Source: Emiliania huxleyi CCMP1516 (lineage: Eukaryota). Taken from it: a stretch of 64,000 nt of DNA. The position numbers and the translations under genes were made by a program. The stretch spans positions 208,881 to 272,880 of the forward strand of contig NW_005201360.1 of NCBI RefSeq assembly GCF_000372725.1. Reading direction: 5' to 3'. A model generated the notes under the pieces. The model saw nothing but the letters and a program-made list of their open reading frames with translations. It was not told where the DNA came from and searched no databases. This document shows, one piece after another, positions 32,778 to 45,856 of the stretch; position 1 is the first letter of the stretch; each line of letters opens with the position of its first letter.

Positions 32778-33657
32778 ATGCGGCGTCGCGACACGGCGGC
32801 CCGCGTCGTCTCGGGCCTCTCGCAAGATCAGCTGCTCGACATCGTAACAGGCGTGTCGCCGCGGGCTGCTGCCGGCGGCTCCCCGTCGTGCCTGGAGTCT
32901 GGCTTTAGGTTGTGGACGGCCGATGAGGATGCGCTGCTTGTCGAGCAAAACGCACCAGTGGAGCGTCGTCACCGAGAAGTTGGGCACCGGTCGCTCGCAG
33001 AGCTGCTGCAAGCAACGCTTTTACCACCTATCCGGCACCGGCCGCGCCGCCCCGCCCCAGACGGGGCTCGAGTGGAGCTCGACGCTCCGCGGCCGCGCAG
33101 AGGAGCTCGTCCGGCAGCTCGCCTCGACGCAGACCTCTGCGACCCGTCGGGATCCCGCCGCCAGCGCCCCCGGCGGCGACGACCGCGCCGGCGTCCGCAC
33201 CGACGCCGACGTCTGCGCCCGGGCGGTGGCCCTTTGCGACGCCTTTGGGCGCAGCATGGATGCCCACACGCTCAGGTGCCGCGACATGAGGTGCTGCACG
33301 CGCATCGCGCTCGGACGAGAGTTCAACTTGGACTTGACGACCCTCGCGATCAGCACCGTGATCGTCGCGGACGCGAGCGGCGTGGATGTCAAGAAGGTGG
33401 CGTCGGCGGCGAAGCAGCTGGTGCACGCATTCAGGCCGATGAAGCACCTCCGGCCCGTCCTCAAGCTCACAAAGGGGCTCCTCATCGGAGAGCTGCCCTG
33501 CGGCGAGGTGCAGTTCGCAGATCTCCTCCCGCCGCCGCCCCCCGCCGTCCCGCCGCCGGAGCGGGGGGGCGAGAAGGGCGTGGACACCCCGCCACGTGTT
33601 AGCAAGCAAAAGAGGGAGCACCCACGGAGCACCCACGACCGAGTAAGTAAGAAGTAG
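32778..33657 (+). pseudogene. Myb/SANT-domain protein with a frameshift inside the Myb repeat (~32937)
   Basis: WTADEDALL in one frame continues as LSSKTHQWSVVTEKLGTGRSQSCCKQRFYHL in the next frame (ORF 32923..33657). Confidence 0.6.
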
Positions 33658-33809
33658 GAAGGCAAAGAAGAGCTGAATGTTTTTCTTCCGGGATACAAAA
33701 CCGCGCTGCGGGCAGACCCTCACGATCACAGACACACCCCCGCCCTCGCCCCCACCTGAAGAGGTCGTTACACGTTAGCCACCTCCTTTGGACACACCCA
33801 GTGGGCACC

Positions 33810-33909
33810 NNNNNNNNNNNNNNNNNNNNNNNNNNNNNNNNNNNNNNNNNNNNNNNNNNNNNNNNNNNNNNNNNNNNNNNNNNNNNNNNNNNNNNNNNNN
33901 NNNNNNNNN
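33810..33909. other. Assembly gap (100 N)
   Basis: Directly visible. Confidence 1.
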
Positions 33910-34124
33910 GCGCGATCCGCGTCGGGGACACTAACAGGTGGGGAGTTTGGCTGGGGCGGCACGTCTGTTAAAAAATAACGCAGGCGCCCGATTTTGAGCT
34001 CAATGAGAACAGAAATCTCATGTGGACCGAAAGGGGAAAAGCTCGGTTGATTTTGATTTTCAGTACGAATACAAACCGCGAAAGCGTGGCCTATCGATCC
34101 TCTCGTCTTTGGGAATTTCAAGCT

Positions 34125-34167
<43 letters not shown>

Positions 34168-34190
34168 TGCCAAGCGTTCATAGCGACGTA

Positions 34191-34225
<35 letters not shown>

Positions 34226-34270
34226 CTGCCTCGCAGCGGGGGCCAAATGCAGGATTGTTCACCCACCAAC

Positions 34271-34325
<55 letters not shown>

Positions 34326-34668
34326 CTGTCTGTTTTTCTACGGTAATTTGGTTCAGTACGAGAGGAACCACCAATTCGCATCATCGGTATAGCCGCCGCC
34401 GGAAACGGCGATGCGGCGAAGCTGCCATGCGCCGGATTATAACTGAACGCCTCTAAGTTAGAATCCATGCCGGAAGGAAAGCCACCTACCGGCCCGGGGA
34501 CGCCACGAGCAACGGTAGCACTGCCTGAGCCGCGAGCGACCACAATTCACGGACCCGGGCCGACGAATCCCTTGCAGACGACTTGAATAAGGAACGGGGT
34601 ATTGTACGCGGCAGAGTGGCCTTGTTGCCACGATCCGCTGAGATTCAGCCTTGGTTCTGACGATTTGT
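33910..34668 (+). rRNA. 28S rRNA: 3' ~760 nt of a eukaryotic cytosolic LSU (28S) rRNA gene, divergent
   Basis: ggggagtttggctggggcggcac; aagttaccacagggataactggcttgtgg; gatgtcggctcttcctatca; gagctgggtttagaccgtcgtgagacagg; sarcin-ricin loop agtacgagagga at 34355-34366; 3' end-like gatttgt. Confidence 0.95.
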
Positions 34669-36731: not shown

Positions 36732-36949
<218 letters not shown>

Positions 36950-37002
36950 CTGGGCCCTGGCCACCACCATTCCATCGACAGTCTAGTGAGCCGCATATCT
37001 GA

Positions 37003-40000
37003 ATGAAGCAATCGGCATTCCCTCTCGCCCTTCTCTTCGCCGCGAGAGTCCATTCTCTGAGCCCGACGCTGCGGCTGCCGAGTCGCGCCGCGCTCAAAGT
37101 CGGCAGCCAGGTTGCGGCCGGGCAGTACGGCCGTATCCATCTCGCCGAGTGGGATGGTGTGCCTGCGGTCGCAAAGAGACCCTACGCTGCGCTCGCGGCA
37201 GACGCGGCCTTGGCCGGAGAGTACTTTAACGTTGAGCGCGAGGTCAACGAGGCCATTCAGAGGTCCAGCCCCGAGACAGAGCACTTTCCACGCTTCCTCG
37301 GCTGCGCTTCGTCTGGAGGCGACGAGTGGCTCGTGTGGGAGCGGCTAGCGGGCTGCTGCCTGGGCGGCGAGGGCGAGGCGGCGTCGGAGCTCGCCCGGTA
37401 CTCCGGCAGCGGTGCCAAGCTGGAGGCGGACCATGGGCTGTCGCCACGTGCGGCGCTGCGGCAGCTCCTCGAGTGCGCCGCTCCTCCGCACGTGCCTGGC
37501 CTCTGGCACCTTCCCTGCACCTTTCCGGAGTCCTGGCAGGTGCGCCGCCGCGCTGCACCGGCTCGGCTACGTCCACCGCGACATCAAGCTCGAGAACTGC
37601 CTGCTCGCTTCCACCGCCGCCTCCGCCACCTCCTCCTCCGCCCCGCCTTCCTCTGTCAAGCTCATCGACATGGGCTCGGCGGCCTTCGTCGACGGCTGCA
37701 CGCTCACCGTCCCGCGCACACCGCCTAGACCCCTCCCTGAACCTTCGGAGACCCTTCCTCCAGGCTGCACGCTCCTCGACCGCGCGCGCAGCCGCTGCAC
37801 CAGCCTCGACCCGGACCGGTCGCCTTGCTCTCCTCTCTATGCCCCGCCGGAGCAGTTCGCATCGCCCGACTTTCCGTTCGCGTTTGACGTGTACTGCCTC
37901 GGAATCTCGTACCTCCGCCTGAGCCTGAGCTGCCTCAAGTCGGACTCGCAGCTCGAAGCCTTTCGGATCGAGCTCTCTTCCCTCGCCGGCGGCGCGAGCC
38001 CGGCCGCAGCAGCCCCCGAGCCCGTCCCTCAGCCGCCCCCCTGAGCCTTCTCGGAACCTTCCGCCCAGGCGAGCTCGACCGATGGGTCCGCGCCAAGCTC
38101 ACGGGCACCGCACTGCTCCACCCTCTGGACGCGTCCGCGACAAGTCCGCGACAAGTCCGCGACACGTCCACAGGCACCGCCGTCGACCCGACGCTCGCCA
38201 ACGAGCTGAGCGACGCGCTGCCGGCGGACAGCCTGCCGCTCCTCGCCGCCATGCTGAGGGAGGACCCCGCCCGCCGCCCCACCATCGACTCTCTCCTCGA
38301 GCACCCCTTCTTGCGCGCCGGCGCCGGGAGCGACGCGGCCGGCCTGGCCCCACGACCGGCATGGCTGTCGCGCCTCCTCGGTGGCGGCGGCGAGGACGAG
38401 TGCGAGGTGCGGCTTGGCCTCCTCCTGGCCTGCCTCCCTCCCTCCCTCTCCCTCCGCCACCCTCTCCCTCCGCCACCCTCTCCCTCCGCCACCCACCCTC
38501 TCCGCCACCCTCTCCCTCCAGGTCCTGCCCTTCTACGACTCGGTCGAGCGGCCCCTCGCCGTGCGCGTCCGCCTCCGGCCGCCGCTCGGCCTGCTGCTGG
38601 GCGAGGCGTCGAGCGATGGGGAGCGTGCGGCGCTCGGCGCGTCGCTCGGAGATGGAGGGGGCGGCTGCATCTCCCCGGGTCGTCTCGCCTGATCTCGGAC
38701 GATCTTCCCTCAGGCGCGTCGCTCGCGGTGGAGGAGCTGCTCGACGAGGGAGCGGCGGCGGCGAGCGGCAGGGTGCGCGAGGGCGACGGCCTCGTGCGCG
38801 TCGGACGGTCCCTGACCCTCCTCGGAGCCCTCCAATAGGTGCGCGCGGGCGACCGGCTTGTGAGCATCGACGGCGAGACGGTGCGCGACGCGAGATGGCG
38901 TAGGGCTCTCGGCGTCTGGAGCCCTCTCTGAGCCTTGACGTGGTCTCTGAGCCTTGACGAGGTGCGCGACGCGAGCCTGGACGAGGTGATGGGCATGCTC
39001 CGCCGCTCGCCGCGCCGCGCGGGCTTCGAGCTCGGCTTCGAGCGCTCGTGCAGCCAGGAACAGTGCGACATCAGTGGAGCCGACAGCGGCACGGACCCGC
39101 GGCACCGACCACGACACGTCCGCGACATGTCTTGGACATGTCCCACCGCAGGCACCGAACTCGATCCGGACGGGGCGGGCGGCGGGGGGAGCGGCGAGGG
39201 CGAGAGCGTCGTCGCGCCGCCGAGAGCGGGTGCCGACGTGATCGACGGCTTCTGAACGCGTGGGGACTTCTGAGTGGCGAGGCATGACGAGTGGTGTATA
39301 GGCGTCGGCGTGATCGACGCCGGTTCCGCCGACTGGCTCGGCAAGAGAGCCACGCAGGAGGACACGCACGTGCTGACTTCCTTCTCGGCCGCGCCGCGCG
39401 ACAGCGGCGAGCGCCTAGATGCTGCGCACGCACCCGTGTGTCCCTGCACGAGGGCGGGGTGCCGCTTTACTCAGGCCGCACTCGAGCCGCACTCGAGCCG
39501 CACTGGCCACCGGACACCGGACACGTCCTCGAGCGCACGGCCTCGTCGAGGCTGCAGGCTTGCAGCCGCACGCACCGCACACCCCGTCCAATAGGCGGCG
39601 AGGGCGGCGCGTCGACGTACGTGCTCGCGGCGTGCTTCGACGGCCACCGCGGGCCAAGGGCGTCGCTGCACGCCGCGAGCGCTCTGCCCGCCGCCGTGCG
39701 TGATGCGATCCGCGCGGGCGAGCCGTCGCCCCTCGCGGTGGTCGCCTTCCCGTGTCGGAACTTTCCCGGAACCTTCGTGCAGGCGAGCCGTCGCCTCTCG
39801 CGGCAGCGTGGCGGGCGGTGGCGCAGAGCTACGGCGAGGGCGGCGAGCAGGACGGTGCGTGCGCGAGCATGGCGCTGGTGCGGCAGGACGGGCTCTGCGA
39901 GGCTGGCCTTTGGTCGACTGATTGACGTGTCCTGGTGGACAAGCGCCGGACGTGTCGAGTGCGCGTCCCGATAGGTGGTCAATTGTGGCGATTGCCGGAC

Positions 40001-40723
40001 GGTGCTCTGCGCTCGAGGAGAAGGAGGAGGAGAGGGGGGAGAGGAGGCAGGGGGGGACGGCGAGCCGTCGACGTTCGTGGCTTTTGCGACCCGCGACCAC
40101 GCGGCATCGGATCCGGCGGAGGCACAGAAAAGTCGACTCGGCGGGCGAGGTCGAGATCTCGGCGAGATCTCGGCTGCTGCTCGGCGGAAATAGGTGCAGA
40201 GAGTCGACGCGGCGGGCGGGCGCGTGCGCTGCGGGAGCGGCGGGGAGATGCGCGTCGCCGTCAACACGCCAGCCGGCAAGTGGCAGGTGATGATCCCACC
40301 CCCGCCCGGAGCTCCCAGGGTTGCAGCTCCCAAAGCGGGTAGCGCAGCTGCGGCCCCACTCCCACTTGCGGATGGCGGCGCACTTGCGGCGGCCGCATCG
40401 CGCAGGTGGCGGTCGCTCGAGCTCTCGGTGGGAGTGAGTGGCGCGGCGGCGGCATCAGCGACGCCGCGGACGTGACCACACTCCGCCTCGACGAGAGCCA
40501 CACCTTTCTGGTCCTCGCGTCGGACGGCGTCTGGGGCGTCCTCGACCAGCTGGCGGAGGGGTCGGCCGCGCGCTCTCGCGGCGTCGCGTGGCGCGTCGCA
40601 GCGGCGCGCGCCGCAGGCAAGAGCGCGGGGGACATTGCGGACGGGCTCGTGCGCTGCGCCGCGCGCGAGGGAGGCACCGACAACGCGAGCTGCATTGTGC
40701 TGCTCCTGGGGTCGGGAACTTAG
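37003..40723 (+). CDS. Ser/Thr kinase (STN7/STN8-like) - PDZ - PP2C phosphatase fusion with N-terminal signal/transit peptide, multi-exon
   Basis: AGQYGRI, AVAKR, HRDIKLEN, IDMGSAA, YAPPE; PDZ PLGLLLGE...AAASGR|VRAGDRLVSIDGET|VRDASLDEVMGML; PP2C ATQED, FDGHRG, NCGDCR, TRDH, VARALG, ASDGVW, GTDNAS. Confidence 0.8.
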
Positions 40724-41159: not shown

Positions 41160-43203
41160 CTAGTCCTTGAGGCCCATGCCACGCCGCCGGTTCGAGCGCG
41201 CCACCTCCGCCTGCCGCTCGTCGGTGCGCGCGAGGAAGGCCTGCGGAGCGAGAGGGGGCCATCGGACGCGTGAGGGACGCGTCGCGGAACGTGCACGTCT
41301 CAGCAGAAGAGGTCGGAGGTGGGCCGAGACTGGCCGAGGTGTGTTGCGCGATGGAGAGGGGGACTGGCGGCGTCACCGCCTCGCCACTGACTGCCTCGCC
41401 ACAATTGCCCGTGAGAGTGTCTAGTAGTGTCTTTTGAAGTGGCTAGGGTGGTGTCTAGGAAGTGCCTCGCGCCTGCTTGGCGAGGTAGCCGTCCTTCGCG
41501 AACCGGTCCATCTCGTCGCGCGTCGCCTCGTCCTGCTTGCTCTTGAAGTTGCCCCAGTCGTGCCGCGACTTCTCCATCGTCGACATCTTCTTCTTGCCTG
41601 TGGCGCGGGAGGGAGGCGCCGGCGGAGGGTGTGCGCGGGTCGGCGGGCGGGCCGAGGGAGCTGAGGGGGAAACGGCAAAGCCTCGACGCCCGACTGCACC
41701 AATCCCTGCACCTCGGCCGCCCCTCGGCCGCCCCTCGGCTGCATCTCGGCTGCATCTCGGCTGCATCTCGCCGTCGAGCGAGGCGAGCAGCCCCTGCAGC
41801 CCCGTCGGCTTGGCAGCAGGCAGCTTCGGCGCGGGCAGGGCCGGCTTGAACTCGAGGCCTTCCGCCACCTGCAGGAGGGCCCCGAGCAGGCTGGGGGACG
41901 GCTCCTGTGGGCAAGCTCTGAACTCGAGGCCGCCCGCCACCGACGAGGCTGCCCCGCCCTGCTCCGCCATCTGCCTCTGCAGCGCCGACGACGCGTCGAC
42001 CGCCTGCGGGAAGGGTCGCGGAAGGCTCGCGGAAGGCTCGCGGACAGATCCGCCTCGTGCAGCGCCGAGGAGGCGATGGCCGCCTGCTGTAGCGACGGCT
42101 TGGCGGAGGGTGCGGCTGCGGCGGCGGCACCCTTGCCGCGCCCGATGCCGCCCGCCTCGCGCTGCTGGTAAGCGAGGTGCTCCTGGAGGTGGCGCTCCGG
42201 GAAGGTTCAGGGAGGGTTCCGACTCCCTCTGCGCTGCGGGTGGGGGCGGTGGCGGTTTCCTTGCTCCCCGCCTTGACCTGCTTGGTGACCACGAGCTCCT
42301 CGCCGCAAAAGTCGACCGCCTGCGGGACGTGTCATGAAGGCAGGGAGGGGCGAGTCGAGGGCAGCGGCGGAGCGGCGCAGTGGCCAGCCGCCGAGGAGGG
42401 GATGGTGGACACGGCCGCACGCGCCGAGAAGGGAACGTTGAGGGGTGGAGAGGGGGCGGGGACGCGCGGCGTGCCGACACGGCCTTCGCCCAGTCGCACA
42501 GGGGTGGAGGGGAAGCGGCGGAGGGAGAGCAGGCGTGGCGCGCCTGGGTGATGGTCACCATCCCGCTCCCCGCCCCGCCGCCGTCCGAGGGGCGCGACGC
42601 CGCGCCCGCCGTCTTCGCGAGGAGCGCCTTGATGTCGAGCCCGCCGCCCTTGCCCACCGCGCCGCCTCCTCCGCCGCTCCCGCTCCCGCCGCCCGCTTTT
42701 CCCGCCGCCGCGCCGGGCACTGCCCGTGCCGGCTTTGCTGCCGGCGCCCCGCCGTTCATCTCGGCCCACAGGTCGTCCACCTTTGTGTTGCTGCTCGCCG
42801 CCTCCGCCTCCGCCTCGCTCGGACCGCCCGCCTCGCCCGCCGCCTCGTCCGCCGCCTCGTCCGGCTCTCCCGCTGCGGCCGCCTCGGCCGCCTCGTCATC
42901 AGACAGCGCGATGCCGCCGCCGCGCTTCGGAGCACCGCCCGCCTTCTTCTTCTTCTTCGCCGGCTTCTTGGGCTTGGGCGCCTGCCGCTTCGCGCCCCGC
43001 CCCTTGCCCTCGCTGTCCGCCACCGGCCCCACTTCCACCGCCGTCTCGTCATACTCTAGGTCGCCGTCCGAGTCTGAGTCGCCCTCGCCGGCGGAGGGGG
43101 CGTAATCGGCGTCCTCCTCCTCCTCCTCGTCGTCCTCCTCGCCCTGATCCTTGTCCTCCTCCACCTCGTCCTCCTCGACCAGGTCGCGCACGGTAGTCGA
43201 CAT
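41160..43203 (-). CDS. SWC5: BCNT-C domain protein (CFDP1/Swc5, SWR1 complex subunit)
   Basis: Acidic N-terminus with DADYAP; KVDDLWAEM; C-terminal MSTMEKSRHDWGNFK...KDGYLAKQ|AFLARTDERQ. Confidence 0.85.
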
Positions 43204-43359
43204 CGATGACAGAGGTTCTGAGGCCCGTGAGGCGAAAGGCGAGTCGATGACACCCTCGAGTTGTTCGCGCCGTCGCAGTCGCAAAAACAAAAGCGAAATG
43301 ACCGGTGCGCGCTGGTGCGCGGGAACGAGACATCGGCGCCAGGCAACTCCACCAGTGGC

Positions 43360-44331
43360 ATGGCAACAGCGGGCGAGGAGCAGCCCGCGCATGCCGCTCC
43401 GACCGCAGACGAGTCCACGCTGCCCGCGCCCGACGCTCCGCCTCCGTCTCTGTCGGACCTTGGCCTCGCGGTTGGCGCGGAGGTTGAGGTGAGCTGGGAG
43501 GTGGAGCTGACCGACGGATCGTCGGGGAGCGTCTGGTGGTCGGGGCTCCTCGAGGCGGGCGTCGAGCCTGGCAGCCTGCAGTTGAAGTACGCGGCGGCGC
43601 ATGGCTTCGAGGAGGAGACACGAGCCGTCCGCTTCGTCGACTCAACGCTGCTCATGGATACGGCGCTGCAGGAGACGCTCTCGTGGCGCATGCCGGGAGA
43701 GGAGGAGGGGGAGGAGGAGGAGGAGGAGGGGGACGTTGCGGCGGGCGAGGCGGTCGGCGCCAAGCGTCCGCGCGAGGGGGAGGAGGAGGACGTGGCGGAC
43801 GGCTCGCTCCGCGTGGGCGCGCTCGTCAAGGCGCGGCTCGACGCGAGCGGGCGCTCCTTCTCGGCGTCGGTGCACGCGCGCAACGAGGACGGCACCTTCG
43901 ACCTGTCCTGCGACGGCTCGCTTGTGGAGGGCGTCCCTGCGGCGCTCGTCGAGCCGGTCGCGGTGGGCGCGGCGGTGGCGGACTCGCTGCTGCGCGACGA
44001 GCCGGGCGGACACATCGAGGGCACCTCCGCCTTCTTCGACGCCTTCACCGCCGCGCTCACCAGCGGGCCAAAGTTCCGCACGCTGACGGCGGCCCCGCAT
44101 CCGGCGGGCGGCGGACGATGCGCGCACCCGGCCTGAGCCTCCTCGGAATGTCCTCCGTAGGCGGCCCAGCAGGCGGTGGCGAGCGAGAAGGTGCAGTCGC
44201 TCCGGCCAGCGTTCGAGGAGGAGCTCGCCGCCCTCCGCGCCACGCGCGGCGAGGGCGCCACCGTCACCGACGTCGACATCCGGGAGATGATGCCGCGTGT
44301 GATGGCGCGAGCGGCCCGCGCAGCCACCTAG
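43360..44331 (+). CDS. Hypothetical protein with Tudor/SH3-like beta domains, 2 exons
   Basis: LAVGAEVEVSWEV...VWWSG; LRVGALVKARL...NEDGTFDL; intron ~44090-44160. Confidence 0.6.
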
Positions 44332-44768: not shown

Positions 44769-45530
44769 TCATACTGACTCCGTCTTGTTCGCATCCTTCT
44801 TCCTCTTCTTCTTCTTGACGCCCTCTGGCCGCGCCTCTCCGGCGCTGGCCCCCTCCCCCTTCTCTCTCCGCTTCTCCTTCCGCTCCTTCTTCTCCTTCCT
44901 CAGCCGCTTCTCCTCTCTGCTCCGCTTCGCCTTGCAGCCGTCCGTCCCGCCAACCTCCGGCCCGGCGGCGGCCGCCTCTTTCGCAGCACTGCCGCCGCTC
45001 GCGCCACTGCCTCCGCCGCCGTACTTCGCCATGAACTCCGCGTCCGCGTCGCTCACTCGCTTCTCCTTGCCCACCTGCAGCCCCGGATGCGCGCGGCGGC
45101 CGAGTCGGGCACCGCCGCAGAGCTCAAAGAGGGCGGCGTCGTCGAGGCCGGGGATGATGCCGCTGCCGGCCGGCTTGACGCCAAACAGGTTGACGGCCGC
45201 GTCGCCGGCCGCCTCGCGCTCGCGCTTCTTCTTCTTGCTCTTGGGAGGCTTGACCTTGTCGACCGGCGGGCGCGGGAGGTCGGCCGGAGGCGCCCAGCTG
45301 GTGGACGCCGCCTCGGTCTTCGCGCCCAGCCCGAGCAGGTCCGCGCGCTGCTTCACACTGATGTGCGACTTCATGCCGTCCTCGTTCTTGCCGAGCCCCT
45401 TGCCCTCCGCCCACCCAAACTTGGCCAGCATCTTGCGTCCAAAATCGCACGACATGTCGGCCGCCGACTCGTTGACCACCGCGCCGAGCGAGCCGCGCGT
45501 CTTGCGAGAGAGGAGGCTCTGGTCGAGCAT
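44769..45530 (-). CDS. G-patch domain protein (PINX1/GPATCH4-like), intronless
   Basis: FGRKMLAKFGWAEGKGLGKNEDGMKSHISVKQRADLLGLG; Lys-rich C-terminus. Confidence 0.9.
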   Translation of the reverse strand: MLDQSLLSRKTRGSLGAVVNESAADMSCDFGRKMLAKFGWAEGKGLGKNEDGMKSHISVKQRADLLGLGAKTEAASTSWAPPADLPRPPVDKVKPPKSKKKKREREAAGDAAVNLFGVKPAGSGIIPGLDDAALFELCGGARLGRRAHPGLQVGKEKRVSDADAEFMAKYGGGGSGASGGSAAKEAAAAGPEVGGTDGCKAKRSREEKRLRKEKKERKEKRREKGEGASAGEARPEGVKKKKRKKDANKTESV

Positions 45531-45856
45531 GATGAGAGCCGGGCAGCCACGAGTCCGTTGCAGCTGCTGCAACCTTGTACTGTGGAGCTGGCACGTGGGG
45601 TGAGCGAGGAGAGCGCACAGGCTCTCGAGGTCTCTTGGAATCCTCGTACTCAATTCTCGCAAATGGCGCCCAGCTAGCTTTGTTTTCTCCGTTTCCTTGT
45701 ACAGGGTACAGCGAGAAAACAAAACGGTCAACACGAAACAAAACGCACCTCTGCCTCCCTCTTGCAGCCCGGCACACGACTAATCTCGATGCTCGCGGTC
45801 CTCAACACCTCCCAACAACAACTCCAAACACCCACTCACGCCCTGGCCCTCACGCC

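Follow-up and report, generated by a model that had tools for sequence, protein, structure and literature searches.

The thylakoid kinases STN7 and Stt7 carry a single transmembrane helix and conserved lumenal cysteines, according to the accessible portion of PMC12661317. A kinase joined to a PP2C phosphatase in one chain is known from Arabidopsis VTC3 (At2g40860), which the available excerpts of two reports (10.1101/2025.04.03.647133, PMC10069634) describe as chloroplastic, as conserved in plants and algae and as affecting light-induced ascorbate accumulation. For diatoms, the sections at hand of a 2023 paper state that STT7/STN7 homologues are missing (PMC10089185), and the extracts of another study that no state-transition-like mechanism was found (PMC9237682).

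Within the window, by which we mean the whole 64,000-nt stretch of Emiliania huxleyi CCMP1516 DNA analysed, positions 37003-40723 are, to near certainty, one spliced gene encoding a single polypeptide with a signal peptide, a Ser/Thr kinase, a PDZ domain and a PP2C phosphatase (Table 1). The spliced model joins 16 exons across 15 introns into 2436 nt that encode 811 amino acids with no internal stop; an in-frame TGA lies immediately 5' of the ATG, and the region is GC-rich with short introns throughout (6 GT-AG, 8 GC-AG and 1 GA-AG). All 15 intron joints were found in public spliced contigs, those of introns 3/4 and 7/8 as one joint per pair with the mini-exon letters in between, the exact borders there being set by splice dinucleotides and length arithmetic. 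Spliced joints were present in 6 of the 7 distinct public runs compared (out of 12 listed; no run is recorded as RNA, and contigs are not molecules), X1 being mostly unspliced. A real stop near 39255, where the initial annotation had considered that kinase and phosphatase might part into separate transcripts, is rejected, as far as contigs can tell: the TGA (39253-39255) is intronic and is skipped in six of the seven runs. The absence of a break between the domains, which the same annotation had noticed, is borne out, with all the motifs it had named present in one frame. A 2148-nt contig (X12) spans 36976-40289, which takes in the start codon and the greater part of the PP2C, and fits the model at 11/11 checkpoints, and a 4184-nt contig (X11) follows the same path at 7/7 checkpoints in the part compared, from the PDZ past the stop.

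Table 1. Features of the kinase-PDZ-PP2C gene and its upstream flank, in positions of the window.
Feature	Position	Strand	Basis or remark
(CA)n microsatellite, 214 bp, ending 56 nt upstream of the ATG	36733..36946	.	sequence
Whole gene, ATG to TAG	37003..40723	+	spliced public contigs and model
Exons 1-8	37003-37472, 37540-37694, 37764-37991, 38069-38104, 38174-38406, 38522-38636, 38714-38772, 38839-38880	+	
Exons 9-16	38962-39076, 39152-39229, 39302-39406, 39595-39717, 39783-39901, 39975-40121, 40194-40286, 40406-40723	+	
Predicted signal peptide, aa 1-18, Leu at +1	37003..37056	+	hydrophobicity/cleavage heuristic made for this analysis
Short basic acid-free stretch, aa 19-29, putative transit peptide	37057..37089	+	sequence; inference
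Stt7-related Ser/Thr kinase, aa 30-344	37090..38316	+	Pfam/motifs; nearest solved structure 4ix3 (via relatives)
Kinase residues: Gly loop G40, K58, E78, HRD D171, N176, DMG D200, S231, E238, D250, R331			
Cys373 in the kinase-PDZ linker, which is otherwise variable	38401..38403	+	present in 102/104 members
PDZ domain, aa 383-477, binding loop P-L-G-L	38546..39054	+	Pfam PF00595, 35.1 bits (cut-off 23.2) on the public model
Intron 9, GA-AG, 75 nt, in frame, stop-free	39077..39151	+	retained in X5, X6 and X8 contigs; spliced in X10, X11 and X12
Intron 10, GT-AG, containing the apparent stop TGA 39253-39255	39230..39301	+	removed in 6/7 runs; X1 is the seventh
PP2C (PPM) phosphatase, aa 512-808	39304..40711	+	Pfam PF00481, 34.5 bits on the last exon
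PP2C residues: R526, E530, D531, DGH D561, D632, C688, R711, DG D746, D798			

Exon 1 is a 99% match to the public model EMIHUDRAFT_225232 of E. huxleyi CCMP1516, its sole match in a protein search. That model, of 501 aa, omits the exon with the HRD and DMG catalytic motifs of the kinase and most of the PP2C, which is probably why it is labelled a PDZ protein; its PDZ is that of the spliced model except for a 4-aa gap. The spliced model thus corrects a public gene model in which both catalytic centres are hidden.

The introns and the flanks show some features of their own. Retention of intron 9 (depth 96 retained versus 28 spliced in X5) gives a 25-aa in-frame insertion in the PDZ-PP2C linker, and X1 contigs break at 39077/39079, which hints at a strain difference in the intron 9 donor. 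Short contigs with intron 15 (40287-40405) unspliced occur in X6, X10 and X12, and its retention would cause a frameshift and loss of the last PP2C metal ligands. Seven of the 15 introns (37473-39782) open with 7-14 nt that repeat the beginning of the next exon, which suggests that such introns may have originated by duplication or insertion. The length of the X11 contig implies that it ends at the edge of the (CA)n repeat; further upstream, a eukaryotic large-subunit rRNA fragment (33650-34666) is split by a 100-N gap (33810-33909), and on the other side lie a convergently oriented neighbour that encodes a BCNT (Bucentaur/craniofacial) domain (41455-43641, minus strand) and an open reading frame with a G-patch domain (44769-45779, minus strand).

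The kinase carries every Ser/Thr kinase hallmark (Gly loop, VAIK Lys, helix-C Glu, HRD, DFG-type Asp, APE-type Glu, subdomain IX Asp and subdomain XI Arg), and among 104 non-redundant family members K58 is kept in 96/96, D171 and D200 in 104/104 each and E238 in 103/104. It is of the RD type (R170 in 103/104) and has Ser or Thr at position 231, in the P+1 loop, in 104/104; conservation is poor for the activation-loop Ser/Thr that precede S231. The Micromonas Stt7 homologue MsStt7d (4ix3) was the best solved match in three profiles of relatives (90 versus 71, 111 versus 93 and 166 versus 114 bits, the second score of each pair being that of the next kinase), and with a model of the relative P0062 it ranked first in Foldseek and reached Z 28.9 in VIA-align (rmsd 5.1, 293 aligned) versus Z 22.5. 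The kinship to Stt7/STN7 thus holds on three approaches applied to relatives, 4ix3 being the one Stt7-family reference and the kinase tree having been built without plant or green-algal STN sequences. The likeness covers kinase sequence and structure, including the C-lobe stretch after subdomain IX, at about 22-26% identity, and extends to the plastid destination, which for the present fusion is predicted. Equivalence with STN7/STN8, in contrast, was not supported: no transmembrane helix was found after the leader (beyond residue 25, hydropathy over 19 aa peaks at 1.26, and the Gly loop already lies at residue 40), and no lumenal Cys pair, there being no cysteine before the kinase, so that the window protein misses both features that the part of PMC12661317 at hand gives for Stt7/STN7. 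Membership of STN7 was rejected on these grounds, and because the kinase moreover has Ser/Thr (position 231, 104/104) where MsStt7d has Asp, we describe it as Stt7-related rather than as an STN7 or STN8; unlike those kinases, it is also fused to a PDZ and a PP2C. Atlas searches returned generic kinase or VTC3-like clusters, among which no STN label was found.

The phosphatase likewise retains all hallmarks of its class (the motif 1 Arg and Glu-Asp, DGH, the late DG and DN metal ligands and the PP2C fold), with D531, D561 and D632 in 104/104 members, D746 in 102/102 and D798 in 101/101. Judged from the alignment, the catalytic motifs that the initial annotation had listed for both enzymes therefore appear intact, the residues being invariant or nearly so in the family. 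No conserved Asp was found three residues before G611, in a region that aligns poorly; the third-metal Asp we take to be the equivalent of PPM1A D146. PP2Cs usually carry R-x-x-G-D, whereas the family reads R-x-L-[GE]-G, and the Toxoplasma PP2C 2i44 shares the Gly-Gly variant with the window PP2C. In profile scores, PPM1B, ABI1 and PPM1K lay at 141-151 bits, with human PPM1B at 150.9, compared to 94.7 for PP2C 57 (4yzg), which we take to be PPH1/TAP38; membership of TAP38 was accordingly rejected, and equivalence with it is not supported. PBCP was absent among the 60 matches listed. TAP38/PPH1 and PBCP resemble the present phosphatase in the PP2C fold and the metal-binding Asp motifs, but they are stand-alone proteins, whereas it is fused to a kinase and a PDZ.

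In the PDZ, G397 is invariant across the family and position 452 is hydrophobic in 104/104 members, by the residues listed; a hydrophobic residue at this specificity position presumably assigns the PDZ to its class. The Pfam PDZ was not detected in single exons of the window gene. A Glu-Cys motif similar to the Cys373 site also occurs in kinase-only sister proteins, C688 of the PP2C is present in 101/103 members, and the window clade has two extra Cys pairs, C210/C220 and C476/C481 (10/10 checked). In the fold model of the relative P0002 (51% identical) the three domains fold separately and the linkers have low confidence (mean pLDDT 73.7, pTM 0.45); confident packing between domains was not seen in it, which at this pTM is uninformative either way.

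Stromal proteins of complex plastids carry a signal peptide followed by a transit peptide, with Phe, Trp, Tyr or Leu at +1. By a crude heuristic, which is not a dedicated predictor, 56 of the 79 members scored had a signal-like leader (23/79 failed) and 29/79 had Phe at +1, whereas shuffled leaders gave 2.6% and internal segments 0.1%; the other 25 of the 104 members had been excluded for want of a Met start, for an incomplete N-lobe or for a leader shorter than 15 aa. By the same crude measure, 47/79 leaders show the F/W/Y/L pattern. The leader pattern of the family is thus, at the level of sequence, that of complex-plastid stromal proteins. For the window protein a plastid location is probable from its sequence, the case being weaker than for the family because of the Leu at +1 and the very short transit peptide. 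The signal-like leader and the S/R-rich stretch noted earlier are both there, but the latter covers only about 11 residues; the plastid targeting deduced from them stands at the level of the family and less firmly for this leader.

All three domains occur in this order in 173 of the 339 proteins gathered, a search-selected set from which 104 members remain after filtering at <85% identity. The fusion is found in at least eight named diatom genera, diatoms being a group whose members the initial annotation had proposed to survey: Fistulifera, Seminavis, Mayamaea, Amphora, Cylindrotheca, Nitzschia, Skeletonema and Thalassiosira, along with a JGI Psemu1 model, and it is also found in the dictyochophyte Rhizochromulina marina. 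The clade of 14 rows around the window protein we infer to be haptophyte. Kinase and PP2C trees of 35 chosen proteins were congruent, having 19/32 splits in common versus at most 3 in 1000 label shuffles and no conflict among splits with support ≥0.95, which is consistent with one old fusion whose kinase and PP2C were inherited together. A separate kinase tree was computed by a fast method and includes a distant outgroup, its deep branching order being tentative. In it, 21 rows form a sister clade whose proteins have the kinase, some together with a PDZ, but lack a PP2C (some rows may be fragments), so the kinase does not need the fusion. P0080, P0100, P0102, P0107 and their clade, among these sister proteins, have a signal peptide, a kinase(-PDZ) and no PP2C, and keep the Glu-Cys tail motif. 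Kinase-only relatives (P0142, P0191) also occur in the glaucophytes Gloeochaete and Cyanophora; these single relatives, which match exon 1 weakly, had no PDB match at E 1e-22, and they may hint that the kinase originated in a primary-plastid lineage. A PDZ-less kinase-PP2C protein was not found among the 339 proteins, a set that contains the top 150 out of 1.84 billion.

VTC3 resembles the present protein in having an N-terminal kinase and then a C-terminal PP2C in one chain, and it is, as far as the excerpts of its reports go, chloroplastic, as the present protein is predicted to be, so that a writer and eraser in one chloroplast polypeptide, as the initial annotation had put it, has precedent in VTC3. 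The domain listings set the two apart, VTC3-like Atlas clusters having no PDZ and the present family having one, and because no VTC3-like protein is among the best profile matches they are probably independent fusions. Bacterial bifunctional Ser/Thr kinase/PP2C proteins in Atlas clusters also hold both activities in one chain but differ, by domain listing, in having no PDZ listed and no targeting leader; the plant, green-algal and bacterial kinase-phosphatase clusters of the Atlas are all without PDZ. No description of an Stt7-like kinase-PDZ-PP2C was found in the full-text literature, covered by titles and abstract starts, with subscription papers mostly outside and supplements excluded; tables of diatom plastid proteomes or phosphoproteomes could already include a member. 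What we have is a real, conserved fusion, apparently undescribed in this Stt7-like, PDZ-containing form.

How might such a protein work? We lean, at a little better than even confidence, towards a soluble protein, predicted to be imported into the plastid, that would work in both directions as a phosphorylation switch for targets common to kinase and phosphatase. The single reading frame, the three domains, the intact catalytic motifs, the ancient co-inheritance and the lack of a membrane helix form its basis. The signal peptide and the short transit peptide would in all likelihood deliver the protein to the stroma, and kinase and phosphatase are, on their residues, very likely both active. 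The PDZ would probably dock on the hydrophobic C-terminus of a plastid protein, so that a single set of substrates, or else the protein itself, would be offered to kinase and phosphatase alike. A light-driven stromal signal may then tip the balance between kinase and phosphatase, with photosynthetic proteins as targets, a step that we put forward tentatively and at somewhat less than even confidence. The most plausible signal would be thiol redox at C373, in the variable linker, and C688, both candidate thiol sensors, or else Mg2+/pH, and it would replace the input through cytochrome b6f and a lumenal disulfide that STN7 uses. Several observations stand against the switch: diatoms are reported, in the passages available, to be without state transitions (PMC10089185, PMC9237682), the PP2C is without a conserved third-metal Asp (the region aligns poorly), there is neither an STN7-type membrane anchor nor a lumenal Cys pair, the sister clade has the kinase without PP2C, the single glaucophyte relatives have no PDB match at E 1e-22, and to the leader's Leu at +1 and its transit peptide of about 11 residues is added the failure of 23/79 leaders in the crude test.

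An alternative, to which we give a smaller though appreciable chance, is a regulator of plastid metabolism or of retrograde signalling, rather than of light harvesting, as proposed for VTC3. Such a role would suit a soluble protein with no thylakoid anchor, as well as the effect of the VTC3 fusion on light-induced ascorbate accumulation and the lack of state transitions in diatoms, both as given in the extracts cited above; it sits poorly with the grouping of the kinase with Stt7, whose characterised members, according to the portion of PMC12661317 available, act on thylakoid proteins, and with the failure to find any PDZ-less kinase-PP2C among the 339 proteins, including the best 150 of 1.84 billion. 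Rather unlikely, in our judgement, is a self-resetting kinase, in which the PP2C would act mainly on the activation segment of its attached kinase and only the kinase would have outside substrates. The RD-type catalytic loop (R170 in 103/104) agrees with it, the sister proteins without PP2C are what one expects of an add-on regulator, and the same possibility is raised for VTC3 in the excerpts of its reports (10.1101/2025.04.03.647133, PMC10069634), but the activation-loop Ser/Thr that such a phosphatase would serve, upstream of S231, are poorly conserved. Still less likely, for this lineage, is a final location in the ER or the periplastid compartment, short of the stroma: the Gly loop lies at residue 29-40 in 7/9 close relatives checked, which leaves a very short transit peptide, and the window protein has Leu at +1, whereas Phe at +1 is enriched across the family, including P0002 and P0007 of the window protein's own clade, and no acidic residue occurs among the first 30 aa. 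Two adjacent genes or a chimeric model, with the stop near 39255 real, would accord with a public model of only 501 aa and with the chaining of overlapping transcripts that contigs allow, but can be set aside as highly improbable given an intronic stop in 6/7 runs, one contig that covers all three domains in frame, and a domain order kept down to about 27% identity.

Returning to the two-way switch, its boldest form would see in this family the thylakoid phosphorylation system that chlorophyll-c algae have seemed to lack: a soluble kinase of the Stt7 lineage and its own counter-phosphatase, which a single PDZ would direct to antenna or photosystem proteins and stromal redox would switch over; we regard this as speculative and more probably wrong than right. 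If it were true, one chain would do the work of STN7/TAP38 and STN8/PBCP in lineages said to be without such kinases. Set against the statement on diatoms in the available sections of PMC10089185, the finding is that many diatoms, along with a coccolithophore and a dictyochophyte, keep an Stt7-related kinase, not an orthologue by its anatomy, joined to an intact phosphatase. A single gene could give access to what writes and erases plastid phosphorylation in major marine producers.
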